Shown in pieces: positions 1 through 14,372 of a DNA stretch of 14,372 nt (positions are counted from its first letter, which is position 1; each line of letters begins with the position of its first letter). The stretch is from contig JACQYT010000096.1 of the NCBI GenBank assembly GCA_016208085.1, positions 1-14,372 on the forward strand. Reading direction: 5' to 3'. Source of the DNA: Elusimicrobiota bacterium (GTDB lineage Bacteria > Elusimicrobiota > Elusimicrobia > Elusimicrobiales > UBA9959). The translations under genes and the position numbers were made by a program. Below the pieces are notes generated by a model. The model was given only the letters and a program-made list of their open reading frames with translations. It had not been told where the DNA came from and searched no databases.

Positions 1-27
1 AGGTTTATCTAAGGGACTCCAGGGGAA

Positions 28-140
28 TTTTTAAAATGTCTCGTGTTGTCACTCTCACGAAAAAGCAAGAACTGATTTTGAGGGCCATAGATAAGAAACT
101 CATCAAGTTGTAATGAGTAAAAATCGCCCGGAATTCAGGT
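28..140. repeat. left copy of a ~110-bp imperfect inverted repeat; the right copy is at ~13650..13775 in reverse complement
   Basis: Hand alignment of 28-140 against the reverse complement of 13650-13775 gives about 78% identity across the small ORF. Similarity continues through the shared block aaatc(g/a)(c/g)gcggaattcaggt downstream of the stop codon. Confidence 0.5.
37..111 (+). CDS. small ORF, 25 aa (MSRVVTLTKKQELILRAIDKKLIKL), basic/amphipathic; has a diverged paralog at 13688..13765
   Basis: ATG at 37 and TAA at 109-111, followed immediately by TGA. A second inverted copy at 13688..13765 differs at 15 codons, 11 of them synonymous, which is the pattern expected under purifying selection on a coding sequence. 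The RVVTLT-KKQELILRAIDKK pattern resembles the beta-strand plus helix A of ribbon-helix-helix proteins, but the ORF is too short for a full fold. Confidence 0.4.
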
Positions 141-148
141 GTTATAAT
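140..148 (+). promoter_or_regulatory. extended -10 promoter element TGtTATAAT
   Basis: TGTTATAAT matches TGnTATAAT exactly. It lies about 180 nt upstream of the 326 ATG. The intervening 155-325 is GC-rich with several short hairpins (cccgc-acttca-gcggg, acccc-ttcc-ggggt, accgc-att-gcggt) and may be a structured leader. Confidence 0.3.
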
Positions 149-325
149 ATTCGTGTTCTGCCCGGTTGCGAGTTATTTATGCAAAACCCGGCAGACCCCG
201 CACTTCAGCGGGACCCCTTCCGGGGGTTTACCCACAGGTGGACACCGCATTGCGGTTTCCCCTACCTTTCAGAAAAAGCGCGGGGCGGGTCCGGGCCGCG
301 TTGCGCGCGGAGGGATTTAAGAGCA

Positions 326-885
326 TGCTTTTGGGAAAATTGTTATCGGGTTTAATGACCATCGTTCTTATATGGGGTCTGTATTCGCTGATGATAGCGT
401 TTTTTCCGGTTTTTTCCCGAAGTTGTTTCAGGACGGGCAGGCGGCTGCCCGGCCGCAGCCTGCTCAACGGCGGAGCGTTATTCGGCGGCTCCCTGGCCGT
501 CCTGTTCTGCCTGCTTTTTTTAACCCGCGGGGCCGGCGGCGTCGGCATCGGCGGGATATTCCTTATCTTCCAGATAGCCGGCCTGGCGGTGGGGCTTGTG
601 GCGCTGGGGGGATTGCTCGGGTTTATCGATACTGAAAAAAAACCGTACGGCGCGCTTGCATTGGGTATGGCGATGCTCTGGATCGTGCGGATGTTCTCTG
701 AAGGCGTTTCGAATATACTGTGCCTGCTGATAGGAATATACGGCGTCGGAGCTATAATCCTTTATTTCCGGGGGCAGGCTCCCGAAGCCCCGCGCTCGGA
801 AACGCTTACCGGCATGACGGCGCAGCCGCCTCCCGCGGCGGCGCCGGAACAGAAACCCGGGGCGCCGGAGAAAAAGTATCCCTGA
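326..885 (+). CDS. small integral membrane protein (about 5 predicted TM helices) with a Pro/Ala-rich C-terminal tail; function unknown
   Basis: The ORF track gives 166..885. The first 53 codons are Arg/Pro-rich and not protein-like. An internal ATG at 326 is preceded by GGAGGGA with a 9-nt spacer. The downstream protein is strongly hydrophobic with Gly-rich helices and ends PPPAAAPEQKPGAPEKKYP. Confidence 0.55.
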
Positions 886-909
886 GTTTATGGGCCGAGG
901 TGATTCTCT

Positions 910-1626
910 ATGATTTCTTTTACGACCGTCAGTGAAAAATTCAACCTGGACCTGGAGCCGAACTTCTCGGAATTGCTCGGCGATTATATTTTAAAGAAAT
1001 CAGGCACACAGGCATCCGCCGCCCAGCAGGATTGCATGTCGCGCCGGCTGAAATCCAATAAGCTTTCTTTGATTGGGTTGAAAGATTTGTTGGCCGGGCT
1101 GTCGGTAAAAGCGAGCTGGTGCGGAGAGCCGTCCCTGAAGCAGGGAGAACAGTTAAATCTTACTCATCTGGAGTCGCCGGATTGCGCCATGTCGCAGGGC
1201 TACACTCTTCTGAAAGCCATGTTCAATCAATTCGCGCCTAACGATATGTTCAGGGTCGCCTGGTCGTATATCGCGGAAGACGCCGAAAGAAAATACGGTG
1301 TTTTGTTCATCGAGAGACAGCGGGAGGAGCAAAAACAGGAAGAGAGCGCCATATATGAATTCTGGTCGTTTATTTATGTCAACTCACAGGACCGCATCAC
1401 GCACTACGCTCATCACCTGGATCATTTCGTGCTCGAGAAAAGTCTTCGGATGCAGCTCGTGTTTATGGGGTTCGGCAACACGGGAAACCTTATTGCACAA
1501 TGTAATCGGGATGCGAACCCGATGTTGATGTTCAAATTCAAGAACATCTTTAACAGCATTATCAATCCGCTTTATACATTCGTTCAGGACGGTCCCGGGC
1601 CGGGCGCTAACAGGACCGCGCCCTGA
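910..1626 (+). CDS. hypothetical cytoplasmic protein, 238 aa
   Basis: Long ORF with protein-like composition. GGTGA sits 6 nt upstream of the ATG. It follows the 885 stop after a 24-nt gap, so it is probably co-transcribed. No family recognised. Confidence 0.6.
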   Translation: MISFTTVSEKFNLDLEPNFSELLGDYILKKSGTQASAAQQDCMSRRLKSNKLSLIGLKDLLAGLSVKASWCGEPSLKQGEQLNLTHLESPDCAMSQGYTLLKAMFNQFAPNDMFRVAWSYIAEDAERKYGVLFIERQREEQKQEESAIYEFWSFIYVNSQDRITHYAHHLDHFVLEKSLRMQLVFMGFGNTGNLIAQCNRDANPMLMFKFKNIFNSIINPLYTFVQDGPGPGANRTAP

Positions 1627-1691
1627 TCGCGCGTGGGAGGCCGGCTGAAGCGCCACAAGGTCAATAATTCAACAGCCCGCCCCAGATTTAA

Positions 1692-1749
1692 AAAACCGTC
1701 CGCCTGACCTGCCTGCCGGTAGGCAGGGGCGGACGGTTTTCTTTTAACC
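1692..1749. terminator. bidirectional rho-independent terminator between convergent genes
   Basis: A 13-bp stem (aaaaccgtccgcc at 1692-1704 pairing with ggcggacggtttt at 1728-1740) encloses an inner 6-bp hairpin (cctgcc-ggta-ggcagg). It is followed by ttttctttt on the + strand and preceded by aaaaaa, which supplies the T-tract for the - strand. It sits between the 1626 stop and the 1773 stop. Confidence 0.7.
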
Positions 1750-2495: not shown

Positions 2496-2729
2496 GAGAT
2501 ATTATTGCTGATGCGCGGCTTTCCGGCTAGTGTCAAAAGGTCCTGAATCCATTAGGCCCTTTAGCCCCCGGCAACATATAGATACACTACTTGTAATGGA
2601 GCTTTCCATTTCCCGGCGGTAAAAGACCGAAGGGCCCAGAAGGGCCTATGCCCGCGCCGGGAAATTAAGCGTTTATAAGGCCTAGCCGCGCGTAGGACAA
2701 AAAACTTCGGGAAAATGGGCTATTCGCCT

Positions 2730-2759
2730 CTGACGAAAATCCCGCCCGCGCGCTATACT
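2730..2759 (+). promoter_or_regulatory. candidate sigma70-type promoter (cTGACGa, 17-18 bp spacer, TATACT) giving a leaderless transcript for the 2766 gene
   Basis: TATACT at 2754-2759 ends 6 nt before the ATG at 2766. A TGACG -35-like hexamer lies 17-18 bp upstream. No Shine-Dalgarno (SD) sequence precedes the ATG. The same -10/6 nt/ATG geometry is seen at the toxin gene (6088). Confidence 0.35.
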
Positions 2760-2765
2760 ATTTGC

Positions 2766-5045
2766 ATGACGATCCTTAAACAGCTATCCAAACTCAGTTT
2801 GGCCGCAGTTTCACTCTCGCTTTTCTCCGCCTCCGGAGCAAAAGCCGCCGAGCTCTCTTTCGATGGAATGGACCGCGGGGCCGGCCTGGCCGCCGCGATG
2901 CAGGAACTGAAAGACCGGGCCGCAACCGGGGACGACAGCCGCGCCCCCGTTCCGTCCACCACCACCCAATCCAACGAGCTGACCAACTTTTTTGACCATC
3001 TCAAGGACGGCGCGCTGGACAGCCTCTGCAAAAAGGCGGAGATAAAGCTCAATAAAGACTTCAAACTCGTTGAGGTCATAGGCATAGACGGCGGGCTCAA
3101 GCGACGTCTTAAAGCTTTTCCCGACAAGCGGCTGGCCCTGCTGGACGAGATCAATCTTAAGCTCAGTGTCTCTTTCGGGACCGAAGTGCTGCAAGTGCCC
3201 AATGTCGGCTCTTTGAACATAGGTATAAGCGGCGGCGTGGAAGGCAAGTCGGTCGTCGTCCGCCCGCTGGACAGCACCAGGTACTGCAAGGAACTGGACA
3301 CCCTGATAAAGCTCTACGAGGTAAAGACCGTCCTTCCCGTAACCGCCAAGCGCATAAATAAGATGGAAAAGGGCGAGATCTGGAAGCTGCCAGTGACGGT
3401 CCACTACAGCATCAGCGCCGGAATAGGCACCATGATCAGCGAAGTGGTCAATGTCTCTATCGGGGCCGGCTATACCAGAGCGAAAAAGCCTTCCGTCAGC
3501 CTGTATAAGATGGATGAGAATAATTTAAGGCTGCGCCTGAGGCTGGACTATGTGAAGGTGAAAAGCGTCGGCGTCTCGGCCAACACGGTCGAGGTCCCGG
3601 TCGGCGACATAGGCCTGATCAGCGGTGAGAACCTGATAGCCACCACGGTCAACCGGGAACTGGCCAAAGAAATAAATAAGATGATAGCCTTCAAGTTGGC
3701 CTACAGCCATGCAATGACCAGCGGCCAGAAGCTGCTGCTTGAGTTCTACCTTGACCCCAATAACGCCGAACAGGTGGACAGGCTGGCGGAGTTTCTGCAG
3801 GGCGATTTCAACACTATCCGCAAGTTCATCGCGATGGGGCTGAAGTTCAACACCTTCTCCGAAGAGGCCAGCGGCCAGGCCGGCGTGGGCGAGATAGAGG
3901 AACTGGCGGACCAGGCCGGTTCCGAGCTGAACGCGACCTCCACTTTCGCCGGTTCCGACCACTATAACGGGAACAGCAATAACTTTAATATCAACATACC
4001 GGTCATACATAATCACCAGAACAGCTGGGCCTCCAGCTATCACCGCTACCAATCGCTTAACAACGACGGCGCCACCATCCATGTCCGGCAGCGGACCCGC
4101 GTCTCCAACGGCGATACAATCAACATCCCTTTAATCGGGACGGTGGTCAAGTATAATTCGCAGCAGCATATCTATGCGGTCAACAAGGAAGCCGCCGGCG
4201 GCGAAGTCTCAAGGCCCGTGCTGCTTTACCAGAAGTACGAAGGCTTTCTGCGGCAGGGCGATTCGACGGCACGCGGGATGATAGACGACGCCAATAACGT
4301 GCTGAAATACGCCGGCAGGCAGGGCAACGGCGTTGACATGAGCAACACACTTCCCTCGGCGGCTATCTTCCCGCCGCTGCCGCCCCAGGAATACACCAAT
4401 CAGAACAACGACTACATGCAATCCGACCCTGTAAAGACCTATAAAGCGGCCGTAATGTCCTTTAAGCTGGTATTCGCCCAAACAGCGGTGCAGGACATCA
4501 TCTTCGCGCCGGCCCAACTGATAATGAAATCCTTTATGAACGTGATGCGCGAGACCGAAGCCGCGATCATAGACAAGGTCATGGACCTGTTCACGATAAA
4601 TGAAAAGGGTAAAGTGGATTATGATTATAAGGCCGTGATCAAGCGCCTGGACGTGAGTCCATTCCCCGACAATAACAATAACGGCCAACCGACCCCGCTG
4701 GACATAGTCAGAAACCTGGCCTACGCGGCGACAAAGTTCATTGAAAGGATAGTCAGCGTCAGGGACGAATCCGACTTGAAAGCTCAGTCGGAGCGGCTGG
4801 CCAAGGTGGCCTCAAGCGGCGAGATGAAATACGAGGATTTCCTGAAAGTGGTCATCCAGATGGTGGATGTGAAGGATATTTCTTCCGAGATTTACATCCA
4901 CACCGACAAGCGCGTCAAGGACGAAGAGGACGTGACCCAGACCTACAGCATGTTCAACAACCGCGACAACGGCTTTGACAGCACAATAGCCGACGTGACC
5001 CAGATGCGGGAGCGCTTCAATGACCCCGGCGATCTGACGGACTGA
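2766..5045 (+). CDS. large secreted protein (759 aa) of unknown function, with amphipathic beta-hairpin-like segments
   Basis: Track ORF 2715..5045. The Met at 2766 begins a classical signal peptide (MTILKQLSKLSLAAVSLSLFSASGAKA-AE). There are no further hydrophobic helices. Segments such as VTVHYSISAGIGTMISEVVNVSIGAGYT alternate small/polar and hydrophobic residues. Asn-rich stretches and codon usage are visibly more A/T-rich than the neighbouring genes. Confidence 0.75.
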   Translation: MTILKQLSKLSLAAVSLSLFSASGAKAAELSFDGMDRGAGLAAAMQELKDRAATGDDSRAPVPSTTTQSNELTNFFDHLKDGALDSLCKKAEIKLNKDFKLVEVIGIDGGLKRRLKAFPDKRLALLDEINLKLSVSFGTEVLQVPNVGSLNIGISGGVEGKSVVVRPLDSTRYCKELDTLIKLYEVKTVLPVTAKRINKMEKGEIWKLPVTVHYSISAGIGTMISEVVNVSIGAGYTRAKKPSVSLYKMDENNLRLRLRLDYVKVKSVGVSANTVEVPVGDIGLISGENLIATTVNRELAKEINKMIAFKLAYSHAMTSGQKLLLEFYLDPNNAEQVDRLAEFLQGDFNTIRKFIAMGLKFNTFSEEASGQAGVGEIEELADQAGSELNATSTFAGSDHYNGNSNNFNINIPVIHNHQNSWASSYHRYQSLNNDGATIHVRQRTRVSNGDTINIPLIGTVVKYNSQQHIYAVNKEAAGGEVSRPVLLYQKYEGFLRQGDSTARGMIDDANNVLKYAGRQGNGVDMSNTLPSAAIFPPLPPQEYTNQNNDYMQSDPVKTYKAAVMSFKLVFAQTAVQDIIFAPAQLIMKSFMNVMRETEAAIIDKVMDLFTINEKGKVDYDYKAVIKRLDVSPFPDNNNNGQPTPLDIVRNLAYAATKFIERIVSVRDESDLKAQSERLAKVASSGEMKYEDFLKVVIQMVDVKDISSEIYIHTDKRVKDEEDVTQTYSMFNNRDNGFDSTIADVTQMRERFNDPGDLTD

Positions 5046-5196: not shown

Positions 5197-5298
5197 ATGA
5201 CAAAGGATAAAAATATCAAGTCTTTTATGCCCGCTGAAGTGATTGAAAACAAGGGGGGAAAGGTAGCAGGCACCTTTTCTTTATCCTCCGGGCCTTAG
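5197..5298 (+). CDS. small ORF, 33 aa (MTKDKNIKSFMPAEVIENKGGKVAGTFSLSSGP)
   Basis: A GGAGG Shine-Dalgarno at 5184-5188 lies 8 nt upstream of the ATG at 5197. The stop TAG at 5296-5298 lies inside the left terminal repeat of the 5293..5451 element. No homolog recognised, and coding status is uncertain. Confidence 0.3.
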   Translation: MTKDKNIKSFMPAEVIENKGGKVAGTFSLSSGP

Positions 5299-5451
5299 GA
5301 GCCTCCGCAGAATAACTTGGACATCTGGAGGCACAGCCTTGAGTCGGATGCAAGGCGCGACGACGATAGTGTAGCAGCGCTACATTGAGGAGGAGCAACG
5401 CAGCAGCCGGCCAAAGATGTGCCTTCAAGTTATTCTGCGGAGGCTCCTTAG
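5293..5451. mobile_element. MITE-like element of 158 bp with 23-26-bp terminal inverted repeats
   Basis: Left arm aggagcctccgcagaataacttg (5297-5319) is the perfect reverse complement of the right arm caagttattctgcggaggctcct (5426-5448). The outer 3 nt match 2 of 3 (ctt against cta). The ~106-bp core has no long ORF and contains the short hairpin tgtagc-agc-gctaca. A degenerate second copy lies at 13531..13582. Confidence 0.5.
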
Positions 5452-5736
5452 CTCTATTATTAGCTTGCTTTTGACTGCCTGGGAAATCTCCCATAGGGTA
5501 TGGAGAGTGAGATTTTGCCCGCCCCGCTCTATCCGGGAGATAGTCTGCTGTTTCGTCCCCAGTTTCCTTGCCAGTTGAACCTGAGACATATGAGCGCGCT
5601 CGCGCGCCAAGGCAATCTGAACAGCTAAACGCGCTTCAATGTCCGCCTCTTCAAAGGCTTTCCGAAAACCGGGATCTTTTAGATCCTTTCTCAATACCTC
5701 GTTTAACGGAATCCCGGCTTGAATTTTTTTCTTCAT
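5425..5736 (-). CDS. higA: XRE-family helix-turn-helix antitoxin (HigA-like)
   Basis: Contains a canonical HTH (MSQVQLARKLGTKQQTISRIERGGQNLTLHTL). It starts 4 nt after the toxin stop (TAA-cgat-ATG), in the usual toxin-then-antitoxin hig order. The last 9 codons (ELRSLRRIT) are encoded by the right terminal repeat of the MITE-like element. Confidence 0.8.
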   Translation of the reverse strand: MKKKIQAGIPLNEVLRKDLKDPGFRKAFEEADIEARLAVQIALARERAHMSQVQLARKLGTKQQTISRIERGGQNLTLHTLWEISQAVKSKLIIELRSLRRIT

Positions 5737-5740
5737 ATCG

Positions 5741-6088
5741 TTAGTCCCCCTTCCTTCTTAACCAGTTCGCGAATGTCCGCTTGGAACGTTCAATCTCGGA
5801 CTTCGGCGCCACCTGCGTCTTCTTCAAGAAAGCATTGGTTATCAAAATTGTTTTACCACAAATCACATAAAGAAACCGGTGTTGATGATGCTCTATCGCA
5901 GGGCGAAGCTCACGGACATTCCTTTCCAACACATCGGCATAAGGCCTTGGTAAATTCGGTCCGTACTCCTGTAATAATGTAAGCCATTTCTTTGCTTTCG
6001 CCTCATGTTTTCTATTTAGGCTTTTAAGATAGTCTAAAGGCTGGCTGCATCCGTTTTCGTCCTGGTAGAATACGACTGTATAATCCAT
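5741..6088 (-). CDS. higB: RelE/ParE-superfamily toxin of the Gp49/HigB type (phage-related-protein family)
   Basis: The protein MDYTVVFYQDENGCSQPLDYLKSL...RELRP...HRFLYVICGKTILITNAFLKKTQVAPKSEIERSKRTF matches the Gp49-like HigB toxin pattern. The track ORF starts 6 codons upstream (6106), but those codons contain the -10 box. The start was placed at 6088 so the mRNA is leaderless. Confidence 0.8.
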   Translation of the reverse strand: MDYTVVFYQDENGCSQPLDYLKSLNRKHEAKAKKWLTLLQEYGPNLPRPYADVLERNVRELRPAIEHHQHRFLYVICGKTILITNAFLKKTQVAPKSEIERSKRTFANWLRRKGD

Positions 6089-6094
6089 AATATT

Positions 6095-6123
6095 AGTATA
6101 CAGCATATACGCTGTTTTGTCAA
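6095..6123 (-). promoter_or_regulatory. near-consensus sigma70 promoter (TTGACA, 17 bp spacer, TATACT) for higBA with a leaderless start
   Basis: Read on the minus strand: TTGACA (6123-6118), a 17-nt spacer, then TATACT (6100-6095). The -10 ends 6 nt before the ATG at 6088, so transcription is predicted to start at or next to the start codon. Confidence 0.6.
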
Positions 6124-7627: not shown

Positions 7628-8242
7628 TCAGTTGGAAGCGTCCTGTTCCGGAAGCGGCGGCGGGGGGATGGTCCGGGGCATAGCGACGGCGCCCGCCGCG
7701 CCGGGGCCGCTGTCCCAGCCACCGGGCTTTTCCACTAGGTCCACCAGCCTCAGGTTCCCCAGGCCGTCCACTTTGACCCGCGCGACGAATTTGCCGCTGT
7801 TCCAGTTCTTCCGCTGGTCGTCCTCGCTGACGAAATATTTTTCTATGCCGTAGCGCAGCTGGGGGCCGCCCCAGCGGCCCTGCCTTTGGCCGCGGACCCA
7901 GAGCTTCCCGTCGGAGGCCGGCTTTTCCTCCGCGCAGGCCTGGGACCCGTACACCGGTAATTCCTGTCCGCCCGCGCTGACCGTCCTGCCCGTCGGCGAC
8001 AGGTGCACGTGGACGGGGTCTTTCCGTTCCGCCAGGACCCTTTCGCAATTGGTTCCCTTCGGGGTGGCGATTTCGTACCTGAGCGCCAGGTAGGTGCCGC
8101 TCAGCAGGTCCCGCGGATCCACCGGGAGCGTGTCCAGGCAGAACTCGGCCACGGACCGGGACGAGAAAGAGAAAAGCCAGCCGGCCCAGGCGACGAAGAA
8201 AGCGAGCTGCAGGATGATCACGAGGCGGAGCTTGTTATTCAT
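7628..8242 (-). CDS. GDYXXLXY-domain membrane-anchored protein
   Basis: An N-terminal TM helix is followed by VDPRDLLSGTYLALRYEI, which matches the DPRDLLRGDYxxLRY core of the GDYXXLXY family. AGGAGG lies just upstream. The start overlaps the upstream gene's stop by 8 nt. Confidence 0.7.
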   Translation of the reverse strand: MNNKLRLVIILQLAFFVAWAGWLFSFSSRSVAEFCLDTLPVDPRDLLSGTYLALRYEIATPKGTNCERVLAERKDPVHVHLSPTGRTVSAGGQELPVYGSQACAEEKPASDGKLWVRGQRQGRWGGPQLRYGIEKYFVSEDDQRKNWNSGKFVARVKVDGLGNLRLVDLVEKPGGWDSGPGAAGAVAMPRTIPPPPLPEQDASN

Positions 8243-9587
8243 GCTGCCTCCTGGCGTTGGCGGCTTCTATCAGCGATTTTCGTGTTTTGTTCAGGAAATA
8301 AGCCAGGGCGCCCAGCACCAGCCCGCTGACGATGAAAGCCATGCCGGTCTTCATCAGCGTTCCGAAGATATCCATGAACCGGGTGATGATGATAAGAAAG
8401 ATGACGGCGACCCCGCCGTTGATGCGTTTCTCGTCCGATTCCATCGAGCCGGAAACGATCAGGCCGAGCCCCGAGAGGATGATAAGAGCATTCGCTATAA
8501 CCGCTATAGGCTTGGCCCCGGCCTCGGTGGCTCCGAACATCAAGAAGGCGGAGACCATCGAGATGAGCAGCAGGGCTTTGGCCGCCCAGTCTGCGGTCTT
8601 TCCGCTCCCTCCGGCTTTGACCGGCCTTAACACCGTCAGGGCCACGGCCACGGCGAAAATGATCAAGGCCGCGACGACTCCGGAGGGGGAATCCTCCCCG
8701 CGCGGCGCATAGGAAGGCTTGTAGTGCCAGAAGAACGTCATGCCGTAGACCACGGCGAACCAGGCGAGCATGGGCAGTCGCCCCGGCCCTTCGCCGATGG
8801 AGCTGATGCCCAGCCACAGTACCGTCAGCGACGCGGCCGCCAGCAGAATGAACGCCGGGCTGTGCAGCTGGAAGAAGGTGGGGCTCACCAGCGCTATGAA
8901 GAGCCATATCAGCGTTCCGCCAGCGACCCTGTCGCGCCAGGCGAAGGCCTTGAGGCGCGCGAAATATACCCAGAACAGCGCGCAGAATACGAGAAGCACG
9001 GCCAGCCAATGCGTCCAGGGAAAAGCAAAGTCCCCGGAAGTGAACCGCCACTCGACCAGCGAGAACATATTGTTCGGCCGGAAAGCCCCGAAGTAAGCCA
9101 CGCCGAGGAGCAGGACCATAGACAGCGCCGCTGCGATCCTGCGCCCGGTGAAGAAGGCCAGCGGCAGGGAAATCAGCGCCCAGGCGGCGAACGGCTTGAC
9201 CGGGTCGCCGGAGAGCTGGAATACCTGCGCGTAGAGGCCTATGCCGATGGGTGGCATGAAGAACCAGATCACCTCGGCCGGGATGCCGACCGCGGGCTTG
9301 TCCTCCCAGCGTATCGCCGCCTCGGCGACGGCGGCGTAGGCCGCCAGGAAAACCGCTACCTTCGCGATAGCGCCTATCTTGTCCCAGTTGTGCGCGATTA
9401 TAAGGGAGAGGCCGCCGGCGATGAAAATGCCGGCTATGATGCTTATCCAGTGCGCCGCTTTGAACGAGGCGAACAGGCGCTGCGCGTAGATGTTTTCATA
9501 CAGCGCGTCCGCTTGCTGCGGGGTTATAGTCCCCGATGCGGCGGCCGCCGCGAGGTCCCGCTTAAGGCGCTTGTAATAGGAGGCCAT
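8235..9587 (-). CDS. polytopic membrane protein of the DUF2157 type (likely with a fused DUF4401-like region)
   Basis: The N-terminus (MASYYKRLKRDL...TITPQQADALYENI followed by a TM-rich region with NWDKIG) resembles the DUF2157 family, which is typically encoded next to GDYXXLXY proteins. It has at least 10 predicted TM helices. Assigned from recalled family features, with no search run. Confidence 0.65.
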   Translation of the reverse strand: MASYYKRLKRDLAAAAASGTITPQQADALYENIYAQRLFASFKAAHWISIIAGIFIAGGLSLIIAHNWDKIGAIAKVAVFLAAYAAVAEAAIRWEDKPAVGIPAEVIWFFMPPIGIGLYAQVFQLSGDPVKPFAAWALISLPLAFFTGRRIAAALSMVLLLGVAYFGAFRPNNMFSLVEWRFTSGDFAFPWTHWLAVLLVFCALFWVYFARLKAFAWRDRVAGGTLIWLFIALVSPTFFQLHSPAFILLAAASLTVLWLGISSIGEGPGRLPMLAWFAVVYGMTFFWHYKPSYAPRGEDSPSGVVAALIIFAVAVALTVLRPVKAGGSGKTADWAAKALLLISMVSAFLMFGATEAGAKPIAVIANALIILSGLGLIVSGSMESDEKRINGGVAVIFLIIITRFMDIFGTLMKTGMAFIVSGLVLGALAYFLNKTRKSLIEAANARRQHE

Positions 9588-9598
9588 TCAACTCGTCC

Positions 9599-11668
9599 CT
9601 ATTTCTTCTTCGTATCGTCGTCCCTGACGATCTTCATGCCGCCGGTCATCAGGCTGCCTATGAAAGCGGAAAGCATATTATTGCCGCCGCCGTCCGCGCC
9701 GCTGTTCACCACGACGTCCGGGGTTATCTTCACCTTGCCGTTGGAAACCTGTTTCATCACTTCTATCACGGACATCGGGGCCTGCCCGAGCGCCAGCGCC
9801 TGTTTGGTGTAGGCTTCAGCGGTCGCCTGCCCGATGGCGCGTATCTTTTCGCCCTCGGCCCGGCCTACGGCTTCAATGCCGGCGGCTATGCCTTCCTGCT
9901 CAAGCTTCGTGCTCTGCCCTTTGCCCTCGGCCAGGGTTATGGACTGCTGCTTCTGCTGGGTCGCTATCTGCACGTCTATCTCCGCCCTCACGAGATTGGG
10001 CTGCAAATCCGCCTGGGCTTTGGTCTTTTCCATTTCTTTGCGGCGGCCCTCGGCTTCCTGCTGCGCGTCGAACATGGATTTTTGCTGGGTGGCGACCACC
10101 TTGTTGGTCAGCGTCTGCATCAGCCTTTCCGGCAGCTTTATCTGGCAGATCAGCACGCTGACGCATTCCACGTAATATTTTTCAAGCTCCTCCATTATAT
10201 GCTGCTCGGCCTTACGCTGCTGCTCGTGACGGTCCTGCATGAACATCATCGCCTCGGAAGAGGAGGCCTGGTTTCTGAACGAACTGTCCACCAGCGGGTG
10301 AATGACCGCCTCTATCAGGTTGTTGATGGTGCCGATCCTGGCCACCATGTGCGGCGCCTGCTGCGGCTGGACCCGCAGTATGACCTTTACTTCCACGGTC
10401 ATCTCAAAACCGTCTTTTGAGACGATGGCCAGCGGGTCGAAAACCATCGGCACCCGCGTATCCGACTTCTGCTCCGCCCAGTCTATCGTGATGTTGGTGG
10501 TGGGGATTATATGCGGAGTGAAGGCCAGCTTGTTCAGATAATAGGTGCCGGGGCCCAGCACTTCGCGCTGTATGCCGCGGTAGCCCGGCTCCACCACATA
10601 ACGCTCCACGCCGACCTTTATCGGGTCCGGGGAGCCCGGCTGGGGTTTCGGAAGAATCGAAATCGGGTCCTTGCCGACGTTGGAAACTATTACCGCCACC
10701 TCGCCACGCTGCACCATCAGCACGTCGTCTAAGGTTGCGTCGAACATCAGCGGGTTTATATAGAAAGTGCCTGGCTTCAGGAAGTCAAACTGCGGGCCGC
10801 GCTGGCCGGCGTTGGCAAGAAAGGCCGCCGAATCCTGGAATTCGCCGGTGTTGCTGACGCTCCTGGCCACGTATTCGCCCAGCGGCAGTTGTTCGCCGTC
10901 GCGGGCGGTGACCAGCCCCACTTTTTTGGTCGGGATCACGGTGGCGTCTTTTATGACGACGTTGAACAGTTTTGAGTTTATCCGGTAGGAGCCCGGCAAA
11001 AGGATATCTATCTGCGGACCCTTCTGCCCGCCGTTCTCAAGGAAGGCCTGGCCGTTCTGGAAATTATCATGCCCCGCCGTTTTCTTGCCCAGCAGCCGCC
11101 CCGGGGCTATGGGCTGGCCGTCGGTTGCCACGGCTACGCCTATCTGGTTGTTCGGGATCCTGATTATCGGGGCCTTTGCCACTTTGAAAAGGTAAGGGTT
11201 GATCCTGTAAAGCCCGGGCGGCAGCAACTGGACCTGGGGACCCTTGTTCCCGCCGTTCCGCAGGAAGACCTCGCCTTCCTGGAAGAGATCGTGTCCTTCA
11301 ATAACCCCGCCGAAGATCTTTCCCGGGGCTACCGGCAGGCCGTCTATGGATTCCACGAGGCCCACTTCGTTCTCGCCGATAGTCGTCATCGGATGTTTTT
11401 CAACGCGGTAAAGGAAAGGGATCAGCAGGTGAAGGCCCGGCGGCAGGATCCTGGCCTGTATGCCGACTTCGTCCGGCATGGCGGCCACGCGGCCGCGGGG
11501 CATATTCTTTCCCAGCCAGCGCCGCTCTAAAACGGCAATCTGCGCTCCGCCCACCACGACGAAAGCGTTATAAAGAATGATAAAGACAAATAATATAAGG
11601 AATGCGGCCAGTATGGTCGTGCCCCCGCTGGCATTCAGTGCGTCCAGCAGCGCGGAAATATTGAGCAT
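9599..11668 (-). CDS. SPFH/Band-7 flotillin-family protein (YqiK-like), 689 aa, with internal tandem ~75-aa repeats
   Basis: N-terminal TM anchor. Four tandem repeats share G..D.FQ.G..FL.N.G..GPQ...L.PG.YRIN..LF. The C-terminus is an Ala/Glu/Lys/Gln-rich coiled coil (AEGEKIRAIGQATAEAYTKQALALGQ) typical of flotillins. A GGAGG SD lies 6 nt upstream of the ATG. Confidence 0.85.
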   Translation of the reverse strand: MLNISALLDALNASGGTTILAAFLILFVFIILYNAFVVVGGAQIAVLERRWLGKNMPRGRVAAMPDEVGIQARILPPGLHLLIPFLYRVEKHPMTTIGENEVGLVESIDGLPVAPGKIFGGVIEGHDLFQEGEVFLRNGGNKGPQVQLLPPGLYRINPYLFKVAKAPIIRIPNNQIGVAVATDGQPIAPGRLLGKKTAGHDNFQNGQAFLENGGQKGPQIDILLPGSYRINSKLFNVVIKDATVIPTKKVGLVTARDGEQLPLGEYVARSVSNTGEFQDSAAFLANAGQRGPQFDFLKPGTFYINPLMFDATLDDVLMVQRGEVAVIVSNVGKDPISILPKPQPGSPDPIKVGVERYVVEPGYRGIQREVLGPGTYYLNKLAFTPHIIPTTNITIDWAEQKSDTRVPMVFDPLAIVSKDGFEMTVEVKVILRVQPQQAPHMVARIGTINNLIEAVIHPLVDSSFRNQASSSEAMMFMQDRHEQQRKAEQHIMEELEKYYVECVSVLICQIKLPERLMQTLTNKVVATQQKSMFDAQQEAEGRRKEMEKTKAQADLQPNLVRAEIDVQIATQQKQQSITLAEGKGQSTKLEQEGIAAGIEAVGRAEGEKIRAIGQATAEAYTKQALALGQAPMSVIEVMKQVSNGKVKITPDVVVNSGADGGGNNMLSAFIGSLMTGGMKIVRDDDTKKK

Positions 11669-11784: not shown

Positions 11785-13536
11785 ATGAAAGGCCTTATTC
11801 AGGACAAAGTTTCAAAGGTGTTTATTTTCGCGGGCGCGGCGCTGGCGGTGTCGGCGGTTTTTCTGCCGGTGATAAACCCGGACCTGTTCTGGCACCTGTC
11901 GGCGGGCCGGTATATGTTTGAACATCTCGCCGTGCCGCGCGCCGATTTTCTTTCCTGGACGATGCACGGCCGCCCCTGGCTGGATTTTGAGTGGCTGGCC
12001 CAGCTTATCTACTACGGGCTGTTCCTGAAAGGGGGGATGGCGGCGCTTTTCGCGTTCAAGGCCCTCATTCTGGCCCTCGCTGTTTTCGCGTTTTTTAAAA
12101 TAATAAAACTTCACCGGTCCGAAGATTCCGCTTTTTTTCTGCTGCCGTTATTCGCGGCCGGCCTTGTGACCAATTCCGACCTGCGGCCGGAGAACTTTTC
12201 AGTGCTGTTCTTCGTCCTGGTTTTCCGGCGGCTTGAGGTGATAAGGCTTAACCCATCTTACAGGCCGTTCGCCGCGGAACTGGCCTGGGCCGCGGCATTT
12301 TTCGCTTTCTGGACGAACCTGCACGCCGGGTACCTTTACGGCGCCGTACTTATAGCGTTTTATGCGGCCGGAAGTTTTTTTGAGGAAGCGCTGCCTTTCA
12401 TATACGGCCATAAATCCCGTATCCCCTTAGGCAAATGGGCGCAGTACCTTAAACTCCTGGCAGCGGGGGGCGCCGCAAGCCTGATAAACCCGTACGGGGC
12501 GCGGCTCTATGAGGTCATAGCCAATCACCTGCGGTACACAGACGTCCTGCAGGAATATATACAGGAATGGAAGCCGTTCGATCTGACCAATATCTACCAG
12601 TGGCCCTACCTGGCGCTTATGGGGCTGGCTTTCGGCCTGACGCTTTACAGGTTCTTAAAGACCAGGACCATGGTCTACGAGCATCTTATCGCGCTGCTGT
12701 TCTTTGCTTATTTCTCCTCAAATCACGCGCGCCACACGCCGTTTTTCTCGGTCACCGCGGCCGTCTGCCTGGCTGCGCTGCCGCTCTCCGCCGTTATGCG
12801 CCCCGTCCTTCGGGTGGTTTTTAAAATCTCCGTCATAGCCGTTTTCGCCGTTTATTACAGGACTTTTGTCTGGAGCCAGTATTCCGGCGTCGCGCGGTTC
12901 AATAATTATTCCGAAGGCCTGGCCGGATTTCTGCGGCACAACGCCGACCGCCTGGCCGGGCTTAAGATGTTCAACTACTGGGGCTGGGGCGGCTACCTCG
13001 GCTTCGCGCTTTCTCCACGGTACAGGGTGTTCGCGGACGGCAGATATATTTTCCACGAGTTTCTGGAAGAAATGGAAAATTCCCGGAACAGTCCGTCGGT
13101 CTGGGAAAATTTCAATCGCAAGTACGGCTTTGAGCTGATGGTGCTGAACAGGGATAAGACCAAAATAACGGTCAAACAGCGCCTTAAAAGCGGCCGCGAA
13201 ATAATTTCCCGGCGTCCCGCCTATCTCTTTTACCTGCCCAAAAAAGACTGGGCGGTCGTCTATTGGGATATAAAGACCCTCGTCCTGGTGAAGCGGGACG
13301 CCGCGGACGCGGCCTGGCTGGCCGGCAATGAATATAAGGTATTAAGACCGGACGACATGAACAATGTCGCGGCCGCCGCGCTTGACGGCGAGATAAGAAT
13401 GGGCGAGATAAACGGGGAAGCGCAAAGGTTAATGGGCCGGGCCGACGCCCCCGGACCGGCAAAGAACTATCTGGCGGACTGGCTGAAGCTTCTGGAAAAT
13501 CTCTGCAAGGAAAAGAACGCCAAATGCAAACCTTAG
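11785..13536 (+). CDS. polytopic integral membrane protein; GT-C-fold glycosyltransferase-like by inference
   Basis: 583 aa with about 10 TM helices in the N-terminal two-thirds and a soluble C-terminal domain. The first extracytoplasmic loop carries NPDLFWHLSAGRYM...DFLSWT..GRPWLDFEWL, an Asp-containing aromatic motif typical of GT-C enzymes. The specific family was not identified. Confidence 0.7.
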   Translation: MKGLIQDKVSKVFIFAGAALAVSAVFLPVINPDLFWHLSAGRYMFEHLAVPRADFLSWTMHGRPWLDFEWLAQLIYYGLFLKGGMAALFAFKALILALAVFAFFKIIKLHRSEDSAFFLLPLFAAGLVTNSDLRPENFSVLFFVLVFRRLEVIRLNPSYRPFAAELAWAAAFFAFWTNLHAGYLYGAVLIAFYAAGSFFEEALPFIYGHKSRIPLGKWAQYLKLLAAGGAASLINPYGARLYEVIANHLRYTDVLQEYIQEWKPFDLTNIYQWPYLALMGLAFGLTLYRFLKTRTMVYEHLIALLFFAYFSSNHARHTPFFSVTAAVCLAALPLSAVMRPVLRVVFKISVIAVFAVYYRTFVWSQYSGVARFNNYSEGLAGFLRHNADRLAGLKMFNYWGWGGYLGFALSPRYRVFADGRYIFHEFLEEMENSRNSPSVWENFNRKYGFELMVLNRDKTKITVKQRLKSGREIISRRPAYLFYLPKKDWAVVYWDIKTLVLVKRDAADAAWLAGNEYKVLRPDDMNNVAAAALDGEIRMGEINGEAQRLMGRADAPGPAKNYLADWLKLLENLCKEKNAKCKP

Positions 13537-13582
13537 GAGCCTCCGCATACTTTGTGTCAGAAAAATTCTTCGGAGGTTTGCC
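13531..13582. repeat. degenerate short copy of the 5293..5451 element's terminal repeats
   Basis: ccttaggagcctccgca (13531-13547) is identical to 5293-5309. An attcttcggaggtttgcc segment (13565-13582) resembles the right-arm sequence attctgcggaggctcct. The TAG stop of the upstream gene lies within the repeat in this copy, and the same is true for the 5197..5298 ORF and the repeat at 5293. Confidence 0.4.
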
Positions 13583-13649
13583 GAAAGAATGTCAAAATAG
13601 CCGCGCACTACCCTGGGCGAAATGCCGGCTTCCCTGGCCACATTGGCGT

Positions 13650-13775
13650 AATTACCTGAATTCCGCCTGATTTGTGTACACAACACTTTACAATTTCAGC
13701 AACTTCTTGTCGATGGTCTTCAAAATTAGTTCCTGTTTTTTTGTGAGCGTTACAACACGAGACAGTGTGAAACCT
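13650..13775. repeat. right, reverse-complement copy of the window-terminal inverted repeat (partner of 28..140)
   Basis: See feature 28..140. The copy contains the second small ORF. Confidence 0.5.
13688..13765 (-). CDS. second copy of the small ORF (LSRVVTLTKKQELILKTIDKKLLKL), with CTG in place of ATG
   Basis: Identical length and a conserved stop position relative to 37..111. Divergence is dominated by synonymous third-position changes (non-synonymous changes: R to K, A to T, I to L). The start codon is CTG in this copy, so expression is uncertain. Confidence 0.3.
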   Translation of the reverse strand: MSRVVTLTKKQELILKTIDKKLLKL

Positions 13776-14250
13776 TTTTTAAAATCCCGCAGGCAACAGG
13801 ATCCGGCGACAGATAATGCGGGGGAAGAAGGCCGGAAACCATAATATTTTCCAGGCTGAAGCCTTCCGTTTCCATGTGGGCCTTTCAGGATGAAGTTCGA
13901 ACCTACTTCGCGCAACATCCCGAGGAAACTTTATAAATTCCGCTTTTCCGGTCGTTCCCCGCGCTCCAGGGCGATTACCGCGAGATGCCGCACGGTCCGC
14001 AGGCTCGCCCACTCGCCGGCCCATTGGTGGGCCGGCTCCGGGCTCGCTCTGCTCCAGCGGAAACAGAGTTGTTTTTCATCTCATCACCCCCGGTTGCGCG
14101 GCCGGTTGGTCCCAACAGGCCTTCCCCGCCCGCTCCCGGCTTCGCCGTATAAATCGGAAAATTATCGCCCGCGCCCACTACAAAAAAAAGATCACAAAGA
14201 CTTCAGAATTGTTGTCATATAAGTTCAGGCTTAGGAATTTCAATGTTTGC

Positions 14251-14323
14251 TGTAGCGGTCGCATTCATGCGACGAATTTGTGCGATAAATCGCACCGCTA
14301 CAAAAGTTGCCCCCGAAGGGGGC
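14251..14323 (+). ncRNA. candidate small structured RNA or protein-binding palindrome, followed by a GC hairpin
   Basis: A 9-bp outer stem (tgtagcggt at 14251-14259 pairing with accgctaca at 14294-14302) encloses two similar hairpins, gtcgca-ttca-tgcgac and gtgcga-taaa-tcgcac. A 6-bp GC hairpin gcccccgaagggggc (14309-14323) follows. The unit is flanked by direct repeats TAGGAATTTC at 14232-14241 and 14338-14347. Strand is undetermined because the structure is near-palindromic. Confidence 0.3.
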
Positions 14324-14372
14324 CTAATTTAATACTATAGGAATTTCCTTTTTTGACAGTCGTAAGCCGTAA

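Follow-up and report, generated by a model that had tools for sequence, protein, structure and literature searches.

Inverted repeats at the two ends of an Elusimicrobia contig are very probably truncated right ends of IS1634-family insertion sequences

Insertion sequences (ISs) of the IS1634 family measure 1500–2000 bp, have ends that fit the consensus C-----YT and produce AT-rich direct repeats (DRs) of 5–6 bp, and their transposases carry a YREK signature from which the Arg is usually missing (PMC2266710). These transposases also carry a C-terminal beta-sliding-clamp-binding motif whose strength tunes transposition, a pentapeptide that resembles Q-L-x-L-F and binds the hydrophobic pocket of the clamp (Diaz-Maldonado et al. 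2015, PMC4549789). IS1634 and IS1549 themselves differ from the relatives considered here in that they generate long and variable duplications (8–514 bp), none of which were found in these relatives. The annotated plasmid-borne members of the family (in Acidiphilium, Alicyclobacillus and Gloeothece) are only 22–26% identical to the subgroup considered here, which is mainly found in uncultivated lineages of groundwater, soil and sediment (Elusimicrobia, Acidobacteria, Verrucomicrobia, Brocadiaceae, Raymondbacteria). In short-read assemblies, multi-copy ISs are usually broken at contig ends, and solo IS ends in metagenome-assembled genomes (MAGs) are the result: a contig begins inside the repeat, and the other copies collapse to IS-sized contigs of ~1.7–2 kb.

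The stretch of DNA analysed here (hereafter the window) is the entire 14,372-bp contig of an Elusimicrobia MAG, whose proteins are recorded as MBI4802977-84. Two inverted copies of one segment lie at its ends, copy A (1–139, forward strand) and copy B (13655 to ~13796, reverse strand), and both are almost certainly right ends of IS1634-family insertion sequences, A being cut by the end of the contig and B being a decayed stump. Each copy would comprise the last 34–36 codons of a transposase gene, followed by a terminal inverted repeat of ~32 bp that the transposase recognises, and the complete elements would be IS4-related DDE transposons of ~1.67–1.69 kb. Copy A would stand where assembly of the contig halted within a multi-copy repeat, and copy B would derive from a different subgroup, with ~140 bp left and everything before the last 34 codons lost, its ancestor having presumably inserted at a TAATTA site in a fragment of a DUF4143 gene. 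The feature is of an already known kind, and close relatives carry the IS1634 annotation in NCBI.

A repeat search of the window returned two pairs of inverted arms, one of 90 nt (29–118 and 13683–13772, 77% complementary) and one of 20 nt (121–140 and 13654–13673, 85%), and the degenerate back-translation of TLT[KR][KR]QELIL matched the window exactly twice, as compared with 0.00 matches expected from 200 shuffles. The first-pass annotation, which had reported inverted copies ~78% identical by hand alignment, was thus right on this point: over 25 codons, 17 of the 75 sense-codon bases differ (77.3% identity). Its codon tally also proved exact on recount, with 15 of the 25 codons differing, of which 11 are synonymous and four conservative (M/L, R/K, A/T, I/L), and with the stop position kept. 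The excess of synonymous changes is considerable (Nei-Gojobori pS 0.65, pN 0.096, dN/dS ~0.07), and synonymous sites are near saturation between the two tails while the protein is conserved. An Rfam scan of the whole window (E<=1) gave 0 matches and a tRNA/tmRNA search of the window found none, so that an RNA element is unsupported. The earlier proposal that selection acted on protein and not on RNA or DNA structure was right. This excess is nevertheless inherited from full-length, working transposase genes, and is uninformative about a product of 25 aa.

The reading frame itself extends beyond the segment that had been proposed as a gene. In copy A it is open from window base 3, upstream of the ATG at 36–38 (VYLRDSRGIFK-M-SRVV...), and in copy B the likeness to protein relatives begins at 13792 in tblastn (LRDFKKGFT-L-SRVV...). 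Further copies, which the first-pass annotation had suggested searching for, do exist: the degenerate TLT[KR][KR]QELIL pattern, run on one genome per species and on JGI metagenomes, retrieved 17 and 61 loci, respectively. In 72 of these loci, however, what the pattern matches is the C-terminal end of one single transposase family (..TMYKVYLRD....F.[ILM]SRVVTLTKKQELILK.IDK.LL.. followed by the stop), and not a peptide gene. Contig ends cut 28 of these 72 loci; among the 44 left uncut, 37 hold an ORF of at least 500 aa, and the others are visibly truncated pseudogenes. An exact 45-mer of copy A had 0 matches in the JGI metagenomes, and a protein search with a 42-aa probe (including six padding residues taken from the relative L013) returned three short fragments only. 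A protein database search gave 1511 relatives, the named ones being called "IS1634 family transposase" or "transposase"; the best 120 of these 1511 are nearly all ~500 aa long and typically lie on contigs of 1.7–2 kb. The closest Logan transposases (P0005 and P0007) come from other samples (SRR2238...) than the window's own, and none of the full-length copies retrieved is from the latter.

The ORF of L013, from an Elusimicrobia MAG and with a tail 93% identical to that of copy A, matches the NCBIfam model NF033559 ("IS1634 family transposase") at E 3.2e-71, with a score of 240.8 bits (the curated cut-off being 100) and over residues 41–493 of 499, and also matches Pfam DDE_Tnp_1 (E 2.7e-9). 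The same NF033559 model gives 184.5 bits for P0132, the protein with a tail matching that of copy B at every residue. The window fragments A and B, taken alone, match no family HMM, as they are too short to score, but are tied to full-length members by tblastn (E 1e-8 to 1e-13), and their IS1634 membership rests on 71–93% amino acid identity to the tails of these members. The earlier advice to look for a transposase beyond the window ends was on target.

The tail is strongly conserved in 115 full-length relatives, gathered independently of the motif, with the consensus F K [I/L/M] S R V V T L T K K Q E x I L K .... At the supposed start, 80 of these 115 relatives have Ile, 26 have Leu and six have Met, and copy B has CTG, so that the case for a gene of 25 aa falls: the ATG is an internal codon of a frame that, in intact copies, reaches back by more than 500 aa. 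Further upstream, an alignment of the transposases shows invariant Y393, E400 and K407 in a YREK-type signature (Y393-x2-K-x3-E400-x6-K407), with residue 396 of L013 being Lys and not Arg (Y-LD-K-DLI-E-KAFHSI-K).

In their overall architecture, the relatives resemble described IS1634-family elements by their ~500-aa DDE transposase, their length of 1.66–1.69 kb (1664–1689 bp in 20 full-length relatives), their Arg-less signature and their termini, CCTGAATT, in which C1, T7 and T8 fit the consensus C-----YT. They are also multi-copy and break assemblies. The left inverted repeat (IRL) of full-length relatives reads ACCTGAATTCC... and the right one (IRR) ...GGAATTCAGGT, over ~32 bp, with 31 of 32 positions agreeing in L023. 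As the right end (...TGAGTAAAAATCGCCCGGAATTCAGGT) is an inverted copy of the left end (ACCTGAATTCCGGGCGATTTTTACTCA...), the transposase stop lies inside the IRR in elements of the copy A type; in those of the copy B type, it lies ~2–8 nt before the IRR. Some of the relatives carry target duplications, which, where clean, are six bp long and mostly AT-rich: they flank ends drawn as CCTG...CAGG in L043 (TCAGTA, found also in the copies identical to it), L050 (TCAGGA) and L058 (TAATTA), and L036 (TGATTTA) is listed with them, while the duplication is absent or imperfect in the full-length copies L013, L023, L063, L068 and L081. Two Logan contigs made of the element alone (L087 and L088) are bounded exactly by ...CAGG / CCTG....

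Neither end of the window holds an element that has its two termini and an undamaged transposase gene, both copies being fragments. Copy A is cut by the contig end, since the window is the whole contig. Its transposase 3' end occupies 1–113 on the forward strand, with the last 36 sense codons at 3–110 (VYLRDSRGIFKMSRVVTLTKKQELILRAIDKKLIKL) and the stop TAA at 111–113. Its IRR (...GTAATGAGTAAAAATCGCCCGGAATTCAGG, 109–139, forward strand) overlaps the stop codon and terminates at 139, or at 140 if the flanking T is counted; the reverse complement of 109–140 equals the IRL of L023 at 32 of 32 positions. The tandem TAA-TGA of copy A, which had been regarded as a sign of a gene, is the start of this terminal inverted repeat, and full-length relatives read TAGTGAGTAAAAATCG... 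at this place. Positions 3–92 share 93% amino acid identity with the ORFs of L013 and L023 (tblastn, E 3e-12), and, at the DNA level, the first 140 bases of the window agree at 91% with the right ends of L013, L023 and L087. The first six bp of the host flank (TGTTAT, 140–145, forward strand) are the expected place of a 6-bp duplication, the left end of copy A being off the contig. Two Logan contigs from independent assemblies of the locus (L001 and L002) start at 111, 30 nt short of 140; we interpret this distance as a k-1 overlap at the edge of a repeat, with k taken to be 31. The rest of copy A would lie beyond the contig, and its completeness is suggested by the open frame, the perfect inverted repeat and the assembly break. 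Another Logan contig (L003, from SRR12113402), compared with window positions 112–1726, carries a 5-nt indel in the flank of copy A and is 99.7% identical overall and 97.4% over 140–330; these differences indicate strain-level variants of the locus among samples.

Copy B retains 34 codons of its transposase gene (13792–13691, LRDFKKGFTLSRVVTLTKKQELILKTIDKKLLKL) and the stop TAA (13690–13688) in a remnant spanning 13688–13792 on the reverse strand, and an IRR (...TGTTGTGTACACAAATCAGGCGGAATTCAGG, 13655–13685, reverse strand) of the type found in the L020/L073 subgroup, with its terminus at 13655. It shares 85% amino acid identity with the ORF tail of L020 (tblastn, E 6e-11), and its best DNA matches are L073 and L020 (83–85%), with which it also shares 8–9 extra nt between the stop and the conserved core of the inverted repeat. 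The inverted repeats of copies A and B have 23 of 32 positions in common, the outer 12 nt being identical. Nucleotide homology of copy B to its IS relatives begins at ~13780–13796; neither tblastn nor sensitive blastn found transposase sequence upstream of it, where one faint match of 25 nt (E 0.27) was judged not significant.

The insertion site of copy B is documented by an uninterrupted allele. Two Logan contigs, L004 and L006, break off at 13654, and another one, L005 (SRR12113399), which is 99.99% identical to the window over the 7,084 nt up to this position, departs from it exactly thereafter. Past 13654, L005 extends the flanking frame without interruption (...YVADYLKEEIAGEALVRNIPAFSEFLKVAAVTSSELL joined to NYANVAREAGISPR...), and its allele reads ...GAACTGCT TAATTA CGCC... 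as compared with ...TTCAGG TAATTA CGCC... in the window. The TAATTA target (13649–13654, reverse strand) is single in the uninterrupted allele, and the ORF rebuilt from this empty site matches Pfam DUF4143 (E 1.2e-5, profile positions 3–55 of 160). From the junction in L005 and the DUF4143 match, it follows that copy B lies at TAATTA in a fragment of a DUF4143 (AAA-ATPase-associated) gene (13561–13653, reverse strand, NYANVAREAGISPRVVRGYFDIL...), and that filled and empty alleles occur in the sampled population. The 5' part of the DUF4143 gene is absent from the window. An 85-aa ORF near copy B had given a weak hint of a DUF2089-HTH domain (Pfam, E<=10), and is in fact the DUF4143 fragment.

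The protein whose tail is identical to copy B over 34 of 34 residues (P0132) is MBI4802712.1, encoded on a contig of 10,233 bp and annotated as "IS1634 family transposase [Elusimicrobia bacterium]". Its accession lies 265 from those of the window's proteins, under the same organism name, and because of this proximity it very probably belongs to the same MAG. This protein has an internal deletion of 51 aa (IRHW...MYKVY), whose downstream breakpoint falls directly before LRD, i.e. where the homology of copy B starts; a deletion that both have in common, a hotspot of recombination and an artefact of assembly are all conceivable origins of this breakpoint.

Four other explanations have to be weighed against truncated IS ends, all of them improbable to different degrees. 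The first one treats copy B, or else the joint between it and the following 570 bp, as an assembly chimera in which unrelated sequence was linked through a repeat, and is very unlikely. The arrest or divergence of three Logan contigs exactly at 13654 could be taken in this sense, but is equally expected from a real insertion polymorphism in a de Bruijn graph. No Logan contig with the copy B region was recovered, the ORFs of this region are not on record, and 13799–14372 is without recognisable content; however, the IS terminus CAGG abuts a TAATTA that is single-copy in the empty allele, as in a real insertion, and the DNA of copy B is identical to no retrieved copy.

The second one is that the inverted copies bound one mobile unit of 13.5 kb, either a composite transposon or a larger repeated element with genes between its ends, and has a very low probability. 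Composite transposons carry inverted IS copies on both flanks, and the window does hold two inverted ends of the same IS family ~13.5 kb apart, with a toxin-antitoxin pair inside. Yet both are right ends whose termini point inward, and a scan of the window for further IS termini found only these two and no left end (CCTGAATTC...). The window thus differs from a composite transposon in having no two complete IS copies: copy B is a ~140-bp stump without transposase or outer end, and both inner termini are IRRs. The two copies are also only 77% identical and belong to different subgroups, and the interior consists of ordinary chromosomal genes (pyrB-like carbamoyltransferase, L,D-transpeptidase, SPFH). 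Finally, copy B arrived independently, since these 7 kb of interior also occur in an allele that lacks it. The suggestion in the first-pass annotation that the repeats are ends of a larger mobile unit therefore holds for the ends, which do belong to mobile DNA, and fails for the single unit of 13.6 kb, as both ends are right ends, their subgroups differ and copy B is polymorphic on its own.

A third explanation, of still lower probability, is that the remnants were co-opted, either as an outward promoter for the membrane-protein gene at 325–885 or as a source of a truncated transposase peptide regulating transposition. Copy A lies 185 bp upstream of this gene and in the same direction, with a TATAAT hexamer at 143–148, just past the IS end, but a promoter and terminator scan of 1–400 found nothing, including no sigma-70-like site. 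Copy B lies inside an ATG-initiated ORF of 76 aa, which has no homologues upstream of LRD and is absent from the genes called in the collection, and the remnant as such shows no sign of conservation.

The ribbon-helix-helix (RHH) fold that had been proposed for the peptide needs a strand and two helices, and would be expected from an independent ORF of ~45 aa or more whose start is conserved. The segment resembles RHH proteins by its basic N-terminal stretch followed by an amphipathic helix-like part, but is unlike them in not being free-standing, in having no second helix and in its unconserved start codon; in Pfam searches at E<=10, the 25-aa peptide, the 76-aa ORF of copy B and the neighbouring small ORFs gave nothing beyond the DUF2089-HTH hint, and what the segment does form is the C-terminus of a DDE transposase. 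A stand-alone, translated basic peptide of 25 aa, possibly an RHH strand and first helix and kept in two copies by purifying selection, is thus barely credible, even if the synonymous excess is real and the in-frame ATG of copy A has a G-rich stretch 8–13 nt upstream, given a frame open to the contig edge in A, Ile or Leu at the ATG position in 106 of the 115 relatives, a supposed tandem stop that is inverted-repeat sequence, no RHH or other Pfam match and a length too short for such a fold.

Other features of the contig were also noted. A MITE-like unit of 158 bp (5294–5451) has terminal inverted repeats of 26 nt (CTTAGGAGCCTCCGCAGAATAACTTG, 96% complementary), its right arm corresponding to the last eight codons and the stop of an XRE antitoxin gene, and the Logan contig L004 starts within it, at 5395. 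A third copy of its 16-mer is found at 13532–13547, as compared with 0.01 expected, near the end of the DUF4143 homology; this could be where a further repeated or mobile element terminates. The antitoxin gene belongs to a toxin-antitoxin pair (5425–6106, reverse strand), in which a Gp49/HigB-like toxin of 121 aa (PF05973, E 1.6e-15) is encoded upstream of an XRE-type HTH antitoxin of 103 aa (PF01381, E 1.3e-13). An apparent operon (7628–11668, reverse strand) encodes a GDYXXLXY protein of 204 aa, a DUF2157 membrane protein of 450 aa and an SPFH/Band-7 protein of 689 aa, and a polytopic membrane protein of 583 aa, divergent from this operon, has no Pfam match. Two proteins of 776 aa (2715–5045, forward strand) and 238 aa (910–1626, forward strand) have no Pfam match at E<=0.01, the former having, by eye, a hydrophobic, signal-peptide-like N-terminus. 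The end of the window (13537–14372) is composed of the DUF4143 fragment, which is incomplete on either side, the IS stump and, after it, ~570 bp (13799–14372) in which no gene could be recognised and for which neither blastn against every locus fetched nor inspection of the six frames gave any homology; nested palindromes are present at ~14240–14300 (tgtagcggtgcgatttatcgcac...gtcgcatgaatgcgaccgctaca).

Within the conserved tail of these IS1634-family transposases (peptide SRVVTLTKKQELILRAIDKKLIKL), the most constant part is Q-E-x-I-L, located 10–15 residues from the C-terminus: among the 115 relatives, Q is found in 114, E in 108, I in 111 and L in 107, and x is variable, its top residue reaching 32%, which is compatible with the pattern published for the family. 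This pentapeptide is a candidate beta-sliding-clamp-binding motif, a role which would be the likeliest one for the invariant core, although it can only be put forward tentatively. Like the motif of Acidiphilium IS1634-1, it lies near the C-terminus, begins with Gln and is hydrophobic at positions 4 and 5; unlike it, it has Glu and not Leu at position 2, and Leu and not Phe at position 5. Neither BLAST nor MAFFT gave a reliable alignment of the tail, or a dependable counterpart of the motif by position, with the Acidiphilium and Alicyclobacillus IS1634 transposases (22–26% identity overall). Truncated transposase inhibitors act in other IS families. The double proposal that Q-E-x-I-L is a divergent clamp motif of a cross-phylum IS1634 subgroup, and that stumps such as copy B would yield peptides binding the clamp or interfering with the transposase, is very doubtful. 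The candidate motif extends a published concept, and opens no new one.

Taken together, truncated ends of IS1634-family elements call for caution when a short ORF appears to be under strong purifying selection between two copies, as a contig edge or decay may have left only the last part of a longer gene; such a signal of selection is then inherited, and is not proof of a micro-protein. For the annotation of this MAG, the 5' end of the contig and the region from 13655 to ~13796 become IS1634-family fragments, and an insertion polymorphism is identified in the remnant of a DUF4143 gene. Among the loci L007–L084, near-identical copies of one IS of the subgroup (with an ORF of 524 aa and the same flank, CAGTAGTGAC) occur in many soil metagenomes and in two Acidobacteria gp2 MAGs, and the hosts of the subgroup include Acidobacteria, Verrucomicrobia, Elusimicrobia, Brocadiaceae, Raymondbacteria, Desulfonema and Proteobacteria MAGs. 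This host range is consistent with cross-phylum spread, and the IS subgroup to which these fragments are related is widespread over phyla in groundwater, soil and sediment metagenomes.
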